In this document: one piece after another, positions 35,754 to 38,268 of the stretch
Numbering within the stretch: the first letter of the stretch is position 1
Layout of the letters: each line of letters starts with the position of its first letter
Sequence record: PP216085
DNA: 64,000 nucleotides
Source of the DNA: Escherichia phage vB_EcoM_HZ_ZJUN4
Strand: one strand, 5' to 3'
Notes under the pieces: generated by a model
Databases searched by the model: none
Told to the model about the DNA's origin: nothing
What the model saw: only the letters and a program-made list of their open reading frames with translations
Translations under genes and position numbers: made by a program

Positions 35754-36269
35754 GCTCACTTTAATGAATGTGCTCATTTGATCGAAGGTGTTGATAAAGC
35801 AAATCGTGCATATGCTGAGAATATTATGCACAATATTGACCCACTGCAGGTTATGCTTGATATGCAGAAATCTTTACAGATTCGCTTGGCTAATGATAAG
35901 CCAGAAACAAATCGTCATCCTGATTCGCTTGAAACTGCAGGAGAAGTTCTTGCTTGGTTGCGAAACCAAGACGATTATATCGCAGACGAAACTCGCGAGC
36001 TATATACTTCTCTTGGCGGTATGAGTAATGGCGAAAAAGAAGCTTCTGCTGTATGGAAACCTTGGAAGAAACGTTATTCTGAAATGCAATCCAAGAAAAT
36101 TCAAGATTTATCTCCTGAAGATCAACTTGAAATTAAATTTGAACTAATTGACCAATTTCACTTTTTCATGAATAAATTCATTGCTCTTGGAATGTCAGCT
36201 GAAGAAATCTTTAAACTTTATTATCTGAAAAATGCCGAAAACTTCGCTCGTCAAGACCGAGGCTATTAA
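35754..36269 (+). CDS. 56: dCTPase-dUTPase gp56 (MazG-like)
   Basis: Track ORF trimmed to 171 aa MAHFNECAHLIEGVDKA... Confidence 0.85.
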   Translation, partial: AHFNECAHLIEGVDKANRAYAENIMHNIDPLQVMLDMQKSLQIRLANDKPETNRHPDSLETAGEVLAWLRNQDDYIADETRELYTSLGGMSNGEKEASAVWKPWKKRYSEMQSKKIQDLSPEDQLEIKFELIDQFHFFMNKFIALGMSAEEIFKLYYLKNAENFARQDRGY

Positions 36270-36436
36270 TGGCTCGTTTAAATAAACGTCAGCTTAAGAA
36301 AGCCCATAAGAAACGTATTGACCAGCTATTTAAAGATTATAACAAAGAGCTCGTGTGTGAGCTCTTAACTAATCAACTTCGTATGGTTGAAATTATAGAA
36401 GGTCCTGACGAAATTTTGTCAGTGAAGAAGCTTTAA
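36269..36436 (+). CDS. small basic protein (55 aa)
   Basis: Not in ORF track; TAATG overlap with gene 56 stop. Confidence 0.3.
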   Translation: MARLNKRQLKKAHKKRIDQLFKDYNKELVCELLTNQLRMVEIIEGPDEILSVKKL

Positions 36437-36465
36437 AATTAATTATAGAGCATTCAAAATGAAAT

Positions 36466-36669
36466 TTGATTTTTTATGCATGGCAAAAAGCCGGGAGACC
36501 GGCTAGTCGAGCATTTGGTTCCGATGGATATAATATTAGAGCCCATTGGAAATTTAATGCTCCAGAAGATTATTCTCCGGTAATTATTAACGGCGATGTT
36601 GTTATATTAACTAAAATCGGGTATTTTAACGTTCCGCGAGAATTTATTATAAATAATCATGTAATTTAA
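36466..36669 (+). CDS. hypothetical protein
   Basis: Track ORF, 67 aa; contains soc late promoter near its 3' end. Confidence 0.3.
   Translation: MIFYAWQKAGRPASRAFGSDGYNIRAHWKFNAPEDYSPVIINGDVVILTKIGYFNVPREFIINNHVI
36648..36655 (+). promoter_or_regulatory. late promoter core TATAAATA upstream of soc
   Basis: Exact TATAAATA about 30 nt upstream of soc ATG. Confidence 0.5.
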
Positions 36670-36943: not shown

Positions 36944-36952
36944 ATAATTTAA

Positions 36953-36976
36953 GGAATCCTTCGGGGTTCCTTTTTT
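36953..36976 (+). terminator. intrinsic terminator
   Basis: GGAATCC-UUCG-GGGTTCC hairpin followed by TTTTTT. Confidence 0.6.
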
Positions 36977-36986
36977 CGTTTTTGCA

Positions 36987-37016
36987 GTTTACTTTCCAAA
37001 ACAAGTATGGTATAAT
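36987..37016 (+). promoter_or_regulatory. T4-type early promoter
   Basis: GTTTACTTT...TATGGTATAAT. Confidence 0.6.
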
Positions 37017-37042: not shown

Positions 37043-37255
37043 ATGTTAAATCGCTGGATTAAACCAAATGAAGACCTCCAGAAGGTTCTTGATAAAGCTA
37101 TCGCTGATAAATGGGGTATGAAAAGCTGGGATTGTGATGTCGTCACGCATTCATTCATGATGCATGCAGATGGTTCAGTCGAGTTCAATGCTGAAATGCG
37201 ATATACTGACTGGGGTGGATTTCAAAGAGTCGAATTTCAAAGAGGCTTTTTGTAA
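37043..37255 (+). CDS. hypothetical protein
   Basis: 70 aa, RBS AGAGGAGAG. Confidence 0.5.
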   Translation: MLNRWIKPNEDLQKVLDKAIADKWGMKSWDCDVVTHSFMMHADGSVEFNAEMRYTDWGGFQRVEFQRGFL

Positions 37256-37596
37256 TGTTTATCTTTAATTGGTTTAAAAATTTCTTTATGGATTTTTTCT
37301 TTACAGCTCCTGGAGAAGGTGTAGTTCCTATTTCAAATGACTACCTTCCTTTAACTGTAGTTGAATATGTTTATATGGGAGATGGAACAGTAGAAGCAGT
37401 TACTATGACTTATGAAGAAGCCCAGGAATATTATAAAAATCCTTGGCGCTGGTCAACACCTACTACATCATCTAATACACAGAATACACAGTCTAATTCT
37501 GATTCATATGACACTAATGTTCCTGTTCATGTATGGACGGGCGATTCGTGTGGAAGTTCTTGCGATTCTAGTTGTTCATCTACATCTTGCGATTGA
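37255..37596 (+). CDS. hypothetical protein with Cys/Ser-rich C-terminal tail
   Basis: 113 aa; ends [17 protein letters not shown]. Confidence 0.5.
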
Positions 37597-37604
37597 GGAA
37601 AATT

Positions 37605-38090
37605 ATGGAAGCGATTTTGTTTGAAATGTATATTAGCAGTGATAGCATGTCGTTTGCTAAAGACGTTCCAATTACTGTAGCAGTAATGATTGATAAGGGT
37701 TATTGTGACCCAATGTATCTCGTAGAAAATTTCGTTTCAATGCCAGTTCCAGAAGATGCTGAAATAAAACTTAAAAAGATTGGTATTATTGAAACTGTAC
37801 CAAATATTCCATTTAGAGCAATTGAAGCATTTACTAAATCCGAATACATTAATGTTAGCGCAGAACAATATAATGATAAACCTTTATCTTTCTATTCGTA
37901 TGATTCATTATATAGTTGGAAAATAGATAAAGGAAATAAATTTATAATTGCAAGTGAAGATGCTTTATCATACTTTATTTCTTCTATATGGAATAGTTTA
38001 CATCCAAATTTGCTAAAAATTCATAAATTCGATGATGCTCCTACTGTTGTTTTAGGTAAAATAAATGAAAGTTCTGAAGAAAATGTTTGA
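37605..38090 (+). CDS. hypothetical protein (possible Mrh by position)
   Basis: Track ORF 37572..38090 trimmed to ATG after GAGGAAAATT; 161 aa. Confidence 0.45.
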
Positions 38091-38268
38091 ATGGTTCAAT
38101 AGACCAAACTCAATGTACATTGACGATGGTTGGGTTGAACAAGCAAATAAAGAAATGCAGAACGAATCAGAAGAATGGATGAAATCAATGATTAGTGCTG
38201 AGAAAGAAAAGAAATTAGAACGCTCAGCGCTTAAATTGATGAGAGACATCTATGGGGATAAATCGTGA
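38065..38268 (+). CDS. hypothetical protein
   Basis: Track ORF, 67 aa, overlaps previous gene end. Confidence 0.35.

Follow-up and report, generated by a model that had tools for sequence, protein, structure and literature searches.

Bacteriophage T4 is the best-studied lytic phage, and about half of its early genes, mrh.1 among them, have no known function. The locus described here raises the question of whether the odd C-terminal tail carried by the product of one such gene is a working part of the protein and, if so, what kind of work it might do. The locus lies in a 64,000-nucleotide stretch of DNA from Escherichia phage vB_EcoM_HZ_ZJUN4 (PP216085), the whole of which is referred to below as the window. 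A plus-strand open reading frame (ORF) at positions 37255 to 37596 runs from an ATG start codon to a TGA stop codon at 37594 to 37596 and encodes 113 amino acids, as established from the ORF list and by direct reading of the DNA. An earlier note, made from the sequence alone, had singled out this ORF for an unusual Cys/Ser tail preceded by a Thr/Ser-rich linker. The tail is present exactly as described, and so is the linker, which is rich in Asn and Gln as well as in Thr and Ser.

The window is T4-like phage DNA, and the ORFs around the one in question encode Dam, the gp56 dCTPase, Soc, Mrh, Srh, ModB, and ModA. A tblastn search with the 113-residue protein matched 501 phage records, nearly all of them Tequatrovirus-type phages of Escherichia, Shigella, Yersinia, and Salmonella; the low-complexity filter of BLAST masked both ends of the query, and the matches span residues 17 to 94 only. 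The match in T4 (MT984581) is annotated “Mrh.1 hypothetical protein” and lies between Mrh.2 and Mrh, which is also the position of the ORF in the window. The protein matches Pfam family DUF7206 (PF23836) with a score of 101.9 bits against a cutoff of 25.6 (expect value [E], 3.8e-29), in an alignment that pairs residues 4 to 113 with positions 2 to 107 of the 107-position profile and is thus full length, and it also matches phrog_2031 (E, 1.2e-34). T4 Mrh.1 (UniProt P20706) is likewise 113 amino acids long and is identical to the window protein from Gly96 to the C terminus; residue 95, Ala in T4 and Thr in the window, is the sole difference in the tail. Apart from this position, the two proteins differ by a few substitutions in the N-terminal helix and the linker, none of them material, and identity between the window protein and its T4-type relatives is ~94 to 96%. 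We regard it as virtually certain, as a joint statement, that the ORF is the ortholog of the T4 early gene mrh.1, belonging to DUF7206, and that its tail is conserved for function.

The DUF7206 family is confined to T4-like (Tevenvirinae) phages of Enterobacterales. Both the gene and the family have already been catalogued, as uncharacterized entries, and the copy in the window is an ordinary ortholog, with no paralogs or similar tails found elsewhere in the window. We found no paper that mentions mrh.1, DUF7206, or Y01I_BPT4 in the literature. A toxicity screen of early genes from Mosigvirus AV110 concerns another gene, gp94 adjoining motA, and does not name mrh.1, and there is no mrh entry in the accessible part of the supplement to the CRISPRi-ART paper.

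To describe the tail across the family, we used 116 full-length members drawn from a collection of 5.8 billion proteins (close relatives), from IMG/VR, from an exhaustive representative search, and from a profile search (distant relatives). They come from phages of Escherichia, Salmonella, Serratia, Cronobacter, Edwardsiella, and Enterobacter and from metagenomes. Every one of the 116 ends in a Cys followed by a single residue (Asp in 112, Glu in 2, and Asn in 2), and the complete ending is S-C-D in 106. At least two Cys residues fall within the last 30 positions of all members, and 108 members have no other Cys. In 106 members, a Ser stands directly before the second-last Cys, and in 98, Asp-Ser comes directly after it. 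A gap of 4 to 10 Ser and Gly residues separates this Cys from the last one; its length is most often 6 (61 members) or 8 (30 members) and only rarely 4 (5 members). The family consensus can be written as [W/Y]-x-G-[D/S]-S-(S-Y-D-S-G units)-S-C-D-S-(S/G)n-S-C-D-COOH, in which the number of S-Y-D-S-G units varies from member to member; a Mosigvirus-type tail, for example, reads SWTGDSSYSSYDSGSCDSSSSSCD. The four-Cys tail seen in the window is found in 4 of the 116 clusters, all T4-type, and its extra Cys residues stand where other genera have Tyr or Ser. Thus, the Cys/Ser repeat pointed out in the earlier note is real for the T4 lineage, but the core shared by the family contains only two Cys. 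This core, together with the variable gap of 4 to 10 residues, speaks against a single chain forming a rigid Cys4 site.

Two members of unusual architecture were encountered in this collection. The 164-residue protein of Escherichia phage 235Ecol030PP (P0003) is a chimera in which a T4-type N-terminal part and tail are separated by a Mosigvirus-type middle insert of ~50 residues (MEEIIRQPEKAGNVGAGALPLNSKKLKEHLD...), and it retains the tail despite the insertion. In one deposited genome, mrh.1 is frameshifted and runs into an overlapping frame, giving a product of 141 amino acids (P0006). The corresponding frame of the window, at 37412 to 37624 on the plus strand, is a 70-codon ORF that overlaps mrh.1, and nothing suggests that it is a real gene.

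We then estimated selection along the gene from Nei-Gojobori-style counts in two groups of sequences, expressed as the ratio of nonsynonymous to synonymous differences per site (pN/pS). Among Tequatrovirus sequences, pN/pS was 0.05 over the last 20 codons (pS, 0.21), compared with 0.13 over the first 60 codons and 0.09 in the middle. The difference was wider among Mosigvirus/Dhakavirus-like sequences, in which the last 20 codons gave 0.02 (pS, 0.46), the first 60 codons gave 0.30, and the middle gave 0.29. In T4-type sequences, the last 17 codons (D97 to D113) show only synonymous differences, and the T/A difference at residue 95 is the sole amino acid difference in the tail. The tail is therefore the most constrained part of Mrh.1 and a functional element. 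Between genera, aligned Ser codons swap between the TCN and AGY families and the sequence after the stop codon differs, which indicates that the constraint acts on the protein.

These results bear directly on the suggestion that the tail has no function as protein and is either a frameshift or annotation artifact or a by-product of DNA or RNA signals, such as a ribosome-binding site or promoter, that serve the downstream gene. The earlier note had allowed for the first of these, proposing that homologs lacking the tail would point to a recent frameshift. A few observations speak for such an explanation: the GAGG ribosome-binding site of mrh abuts the mrh.1 stop codon, one record (H28) annotates a promoter under the gene, and the frameshifted variant described above exists. 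The tail is present, however, in all 116 full-length members across genera, it is under the strongest purifying selection in the gene despite high synonymous divergence, and its amino acid motif persists through the switches of Ser codon family and through changes of downstream gene and spacer. We therefore ruled out both the artifact and overlapping nucleic acid signals as the cause of the conservation, and the chance that the tail is nonfunctional as protein seems to us negligible.

The tail also stands out against the rest of the window. Fifteen of its last 20 residues are Ser, Cys, or Asp, and of the 645 ORF variants in the six frames that begin with Met and are 40 amino acids or longer, no other has 11 or more of these residues in its last 20, so the tail is not a chance feature. 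The only DNA repeat in the tail is a direct repeat of 10 nucleotides, TCTTGCGATT, with copies at 37558 and 37585 that encode the two Ser-Cys-Asp motifs, and the linker holds a 9-nucleotide tandem repeat encoding NTQNTQ. As these are the only repeats, an origin of the tail in a DNA microsatellite was ruled out.

Across the 116 members, Ser accounts for 46% of the last 20 residues, Asp for 17%, Gly for 14%, Cys for 10%, and Tyr for 8%, a composition that resembles the cores of lanthipeptides and thiopeptides. This resemblance raises the possibility that Mrh.1 is a substrate of the kind seen among ribosomally synthesized and posttranslationally modified peptides (RiPPs), with the Ser/Cys tail as a core peptide that would be cross-linked, cyclized (through lanthionine, thioether, or azoline formation), or otherwise modified by an enzyme of the host or the phage and the rest of the protein as its leader. 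The only NCBIfam match of the protein points the same way, in that TIGR04363, the FxLD lanthipeptide precursor family, aligns to residues 95 to 109 (E, 0.034). The score of this match is 14.1 bits, below the cutoff of 30, it covers the tail only, and it relies on the T4-specific extra Cys that 112 of the 116 members lack. Furthermore, no dehydratase, cyclase, YcaO, or radical-SAM protein occurs among the Pfam-matched neighbors in the loci examined, the remaining neighbors being small ORFs without matches; the family occurs only in lytic T4-like phages of diverse hosts; and a 95-residue “leader” with a conserved fold would be atypical. On this evidence, we consider a RiPP-like substrate very improbable.

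To see what the tail is attached to, we gave AlphaFold2 the alignment of the 116 sequences and modeled both the window protein and a Mosigvirus-type member. The two models are alike and of low overall confidence (mean predicted local distance difference test score [pLDDT], 60), and each has a short N-terminal helix, a beta-hairpin, one or two helices, and a tail with a pLDDT below 50. The N terminus of the family follows the motif M-x-x-[WF]-[LI]-K-x-[LF]-F, then P-G-E-G-V-V-P-I, in which K8, F15, P19, and P25 are nearly invariant. Judged by inspection, this region (in the Mosigvirus type, MINWLKNLFKTK) looks like a short amphipathic helix that contains Lys and Asp rather than a canonical signal peptide or a hydrophobic span of 20 residues, either of which would mark a secreted or membrane protein in which structural disulfides could form. 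The hairpin, also present in the Mosigvirus-type model, carries the core motif E-Y-V-Y-M-G-D-G-x-x-E, and its residues E37, Y40, G42, D43, G44, and E47 are invariant or nearly so. In the 116 sequences as a whole, G44 and C112 are invariant, and E37, Y40, G42, D43, C103, D104, and D113 are at least 90% conserved. The window protein thus has both of the family hallmarks derived here, the E-Y-x-Y-M-G-D-G hairpin and the S-C-D-S...S-C-D-COOH tail. Its net charge is about −11; in other genera, a basic helical segment replaces the linker, and DNA mimicry as a family-wide function was ruled out on the ground of this basic middle segment. Searched against the PDB with Foldseek, the low-confidence AlphaFold model gave no match of note (best E, 2.4). 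A search of the PDB sequences by profile also gave nothing credible, its best match (E, 0.13) being a spurious one to a capsid protein.

Taken together, these results make the tail the family-defining and most strongly selected element of the protein, with a precise motif, and turn an anonymous hypothetical protein into a testable object: a stretch of 20 residues, predicted to be disordered, on which selection has acted across several genera of T4-like phages and in which two invariant Cys-Asp dyads are anchored at the C terminus. They also single out C103, C112, and D113 for mutation and the tail peptide for use as bait. Any account of the tail has to cover exactly two invariant Cys residues with an Asp after each, a flexible spacer that varies in length, and a second Cys beside the free C terminus, as well as the predicted disorder, the early and presumably cytoplasmic nature of the protein, and the replacement of Tyr and Ser by Cys in one lineage.

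The reading that we tentatively prefer, as a possibility rather than a probability, is that the tail is a flexible C-terminal thiol-carboxylate element that either chelates metal or docks into a host protein at a site that depends on a metal or a thiol. The tail would then be the working end of a small cytoplasmic host takeover or accessory protein, with two thiol-carboxylate dyads, Cys-Asp ... Cys-Asp-COOH, on a flexible segment anchored at the C terminus. In one version, the tail itself would bind a soft or borderline metal ion of the Zn, Fe, Cu, or Ni class; in the other, the metal or the thiol chemistry would be supplied by the host protein. Localization or partner binding, possibly together with Mrh.2, would fall to the hairpin core and the N-terminal helix, and in the T4 lineage, the conversion of Tyr and Ser positions to extra Cys would raise the density of ligands or thiols. 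The proposal of the earlier note, a metal-binding tail or a substrate-like decoy, is likewise compatible with the two invariant Cys-Asp pairs, the flexible spacer, the predicted disorder, and the fixed C-terminal place.

Several points weigh against a thiol-carboxylate role. Homology offers no link between the tail and a metal or a target of any kind, and no known metal-binding domain was detected in Mrh.1 in the Pfam and NCBIfam scans. Two Cys residues per chain with a gap of 4 to 10 do not form a recognizable metal site, and a complete Cys4 or Cys2Asp2 site may need oligomerization or a partner. The structure predictions, whose low confidence was noted above, show no pocket, and an Asp beside a Cys is equally compatible with a C-terminal peptide motif that acts purely through recognition. 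Lastly, T4 Mrh.1 was undetected in a time-resolved proteome (PMC9697503), although this is uninformative given that trypsin is predicted to cut it into peptides of 8, 53, 4, and 48 residues.

The possibility of pure recognition leads to a distinct explanation, in which the tail is a docking peptide, short linear motif, or decoy and the S-C-D-COOH end and S-Y-D-S-G units are read by a host or phage protein. Such a tail could be a pseudosubstrate or competitor for an enzyme that acts on acidic tails rich in Ser, Tyr, and Cys or for a reader of free C termini, with Cys serving recognition and not chemistry. The free C terminus indeed looks like part of the motif, given a Cys at position −2 in all members and an acidic last residue in 114 of the 116; the tail is predicted to be disordered in both models; the variable number of S-Y-D-S-G units is typical of linear motifs; and very strong selection acts on a region without predicted structure. 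On the other hand, no candidate receptor is known, and a tail-only profile search gave no significant occurrence in host proteins that the tail might mimic. The strict retention of the two Cys residues in proteins that mostly have no other Cys is, moreover, more typical of a chemical role as ligand, redox group, or nucleophile. We place this explanation second and consider it rather unlikely.

Resolving Cys pairs sit on flexible C-terminal tails in the large subunit of class I ribonucleotide reductase and in methionine sulfoxide reductase, and the Mrh.1 tail, with two invariant Cys residues 4 to 10 small residues apart on a flexible segment, could in principle be redox active as well. Its Cys pair would cycle between dithiol and disulfide, and the thioredoxin and glutaredoxin systems of the host or the phage would find in the tail a substrate, sink, or decoy. 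The last pair of the T4 lineage, C-x4-C-x-COOH, has the same spacing and near-terminal position as the pair in the tail of Escherichia coli NrdA, ...C-E-S-G-A-C-K-I, and Tyr and Cys, which interchange between lineages, are both redox active. The C-x4-C spacing is, however, restricted to the five members with the shortest gap, neither the PDB profile search nor the tail-only profile search revealed sequence similarity to a reductase tail, and the redox role is pure inference. We judge it quite unlikely.

Returning to the thiol-carboxylate reading, a more specific form of it would make the tail an effector module of a kind not previously described, a disordered “thiol hook” that captures, covalently or by coordination, a host factor conserved in Enterobacterales. 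Its target might be a metal center, an Fe-S or zinc protein, or a thiol-dependent component of stress response or defense. Although unlikely, this idea, if true, would amount to a new mechanism of host takeover or counterdefense in T4, encoded in the same early block as the heat shock modulators Mrh and Srh and the ADP-ribosyltransferases ModA and ModB. More generally, if the tail is a metal- or thiol-directed effector, it represents a new small-protein mechanism in the takeover of the host by phage; if not, Mrh.1 is an ordinary conserved orphan. ModA and ModB are Arg-specific enzymes, and since the tail contains no Arg, its ADP-ribosylation by these neighbors was set aside.

The tail-only profile search, which covered 5.8 billion proteins, returned two nonsignificant matches (E, ~0.7). 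Both are to unrelated mini-proteins of 65 to 71 amino acids (P0125, L019 6001 to 6198; P0126, L020 1235 to 1450) with an N-terminal CxxC...CxxC zinc ribbon and C-terminal tails, ...SSYDSGSSCDSGSCGSSD and ...SYDSGSSSCDSGSSDSGGSCDSGGSF, that resemble the DUF7206 tail, with recurrence of S-Y-D-S-G-S-S-C-D-S-G. One of the two genes lies directly after a Band_7 gene in a TerD-TerD-TelA-TerC cluster. At this E value, the likeness may reflect convergence or chance; were the thiol hook real, the tails of the zinc ribbon proteins would mean that it is a portable module.

The coordinates of the features of mrh.1 and of its surroundings in the window are collected in Table 1.

Table 1. Positions in the window of the features discussed in the text
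Feature	Coordinates	Strand	Basis or remark
Terminator-like hairpin and T-run just after soc, at the end of the upstream unit	36951-36982 (hairpin, 36951-36972)	+	Consensus match only
Sigma-70-type promoter-like site, TTTACT-17-TATAAT, with upstream TG	36988-37016	+	10/12 consensus matches only
mrh.2 ortholog, 70 amino acids, phrog_1873	37043-37255	+	Homologs carry PF26878 (Phage_T4_Y01J)
mrh.1 ortholog, 113 amino acids plus stop	37255-37596	+	DUF7206 (PF23836), phrog_2031
N-terminal aromatic/amphipathic helix, residues 3-15	37261-37299	+	AlphaFold helix, pLDDT ~66; hydrophobic moments
Beta-hairpin (residues 34-52), then short helix (53-67)	37354-37455	+	Block pLDDT 77-87; only confidently predicted fold
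Variable Thr/Ser/Asn/Gln-rich linker, residues 68-93	37456-37533	+	pLDDT 41-47
C-terminal tail, residues 94-113, Cys at 99, 103, 107, and 112	37534-37593	+	Predicted disordered; strongest purifying selection in the gene
First Ser-Cys-Asp, S102-C103-D104	37558-37566	+	S-C-D-S context nearly invariant in the family
Terminal Ser-Cys-Asp-COOH, S111-C112-D113	37585-37593	+	Cys penultimate in 116/116 members
mrh ortholog, 161 amino acids, PF24070 T4_MRH	37605-38090	+	GAGG ribosome-binding site at the mrh.1 stop codon

By coordinate, the order of genes in this part of the window is soc (36686), mrh.2 (37043), mrh.1 (37255), mrh (37605), srh (38065), modB (39139), and modA (39771), which corresponds to a conserved early block, soc - mrh.2 - mrh.1 - [mrh] - srh - modA.x - modB/modA. 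The synteny is kept in Escherichia, Enterobacter, and Serratia-type phages, and soc - mrh.2 - mrh.1 - ... - mod - dda is found even in distant phages. The gene after mrh.1 is mrh in T4-type phages, srh in the Mosigvirus type, and a Mod ADP-ribosyltransferase gene in the Serratia type. Because Mosigvirus-like loci are without mrh and one Serratia-type locus is without both mrh.2 and mrh, DUF7206 is not strictly tied to either neighbor. The immediate neighbors scanned in the window were Soc, T4_MRH, and Mrh.2, the last of which had no Pfam match; Pfam matches in related loci comprised the Soc, T4_MRH, Y01J, Y01E, Mod_ADP_RT, Y01A, and Dda helicase families.

Three features of the DNA would together define an mrh.2-mrh.1-mrh unit. 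The terminator-like hairpin behind soc has a 9-bp stem with four GC pairs and the tail TTTTCGTTTT. The promoter-like site that follows it ends 27 nucleotides before mrh.2 and, judged by its match to the consensus, is likely to be the early promoter of the unit. Finally, the stop codon of mrh.2 overlaps the ATG of mrh.1 in the form TAATG (37252 to 37257), which suggests that the two genes are translationally coupled. In a time-resolved omics study of T4 (PMC9697503, supplementary file 4), mrh.1 (P20706) belongs to the early RNA class and has no protein class, meaning that the protein was undetected, whereas its neighbors mrh.2, mrh, and srh were detected as proteins. Because of the sizes of its tryptic peptides, Mrh.1 is likely to be invisible to standard shotgun proteomics, and its absence from the T4 proteome probably reflects a limit of the technique and does not show that the protein is missing.

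Further observations concern the neighborhood of mrh.1. The mrh.2 gene of the window is 97 to 99% identical to two IMG/VR relatives and only 60% identical to T4 mrh.2, and mrh is 77% identical to its T4 counterpart and 97% identical to other relatives. Between these mosaic neighbors, mrh.1 is ~94 to 96% identical everywhere (window 37043 to 38090 compared with loci L001 to L007). Recombination breakpoints seem to flank mrh.1, in a pattern of fine-scale mosaicism. T4 has the homing endonuclease gene segF between gene 56 and soc; the window lacks this gene and has in its place, at 36269 to 36669, two small ORFs of 55 and 67 amino acids that match phrog_5782 and phrog_5773, labeled by PHROGs as virion structural or head proteins. 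In Enterobacter phage loci L014 and L015 (2224 to 3738), a 504-residue protein combining Soc with a GDSL lipase/esterase domain adjoins an ordinary soc gene and may be a capsid-displayed esterase. In a Mosigvirus-like locus (L008, 1501 to 2034), srh, which occupies 38065 to 38268 in the window, directly follows mrh.1, and Srh starts with MRITSWLKDWLVTPG, which resembles the start of Mrh.1, MINWLKNLFKTKPG. The two N termini may share an amphipathic motif, although BLASTP detects no similarity between them.

Besides T4 Mrh.1 itself, a few known proteins bear some resemblance to the window protein and its family. FxLD lanthipeptide precursors share with Mrh.1 a Ser/Cys-rich C-terminal stretch, but it differs from them in having no leader motif, no modifying enzyme nearby, and, in most members, only two Cys residues. 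The large subunit of ribonucleotide reductase, like T4-type Mrh.1, carries a Cys pair on a flexible tail at the extreme C terminus; Mrh.1, however, has no enzyme domain attached, a spacing that ranges across the family, and no sequence similarity to the reductase. Established precedents offer leads for the thiol-carboxylate reading: flexible C-terminal tails rich in Cys, Asp, and His bind metal in proteins such as E. coli SlyD, and C-terminal Cys pairs shuttle metals or electrons in MerA and the large subunit of class I ribonucleotide reductase. Although the Mrh.1 tail has no His, only two conserved Cys residues, and no sequence similarity to the tails of SlyD and MerA, it shares with them the plan of a flexible, low-complexity C-terminal extension, bearing conserved Cys and Asp, on a small folded unit.

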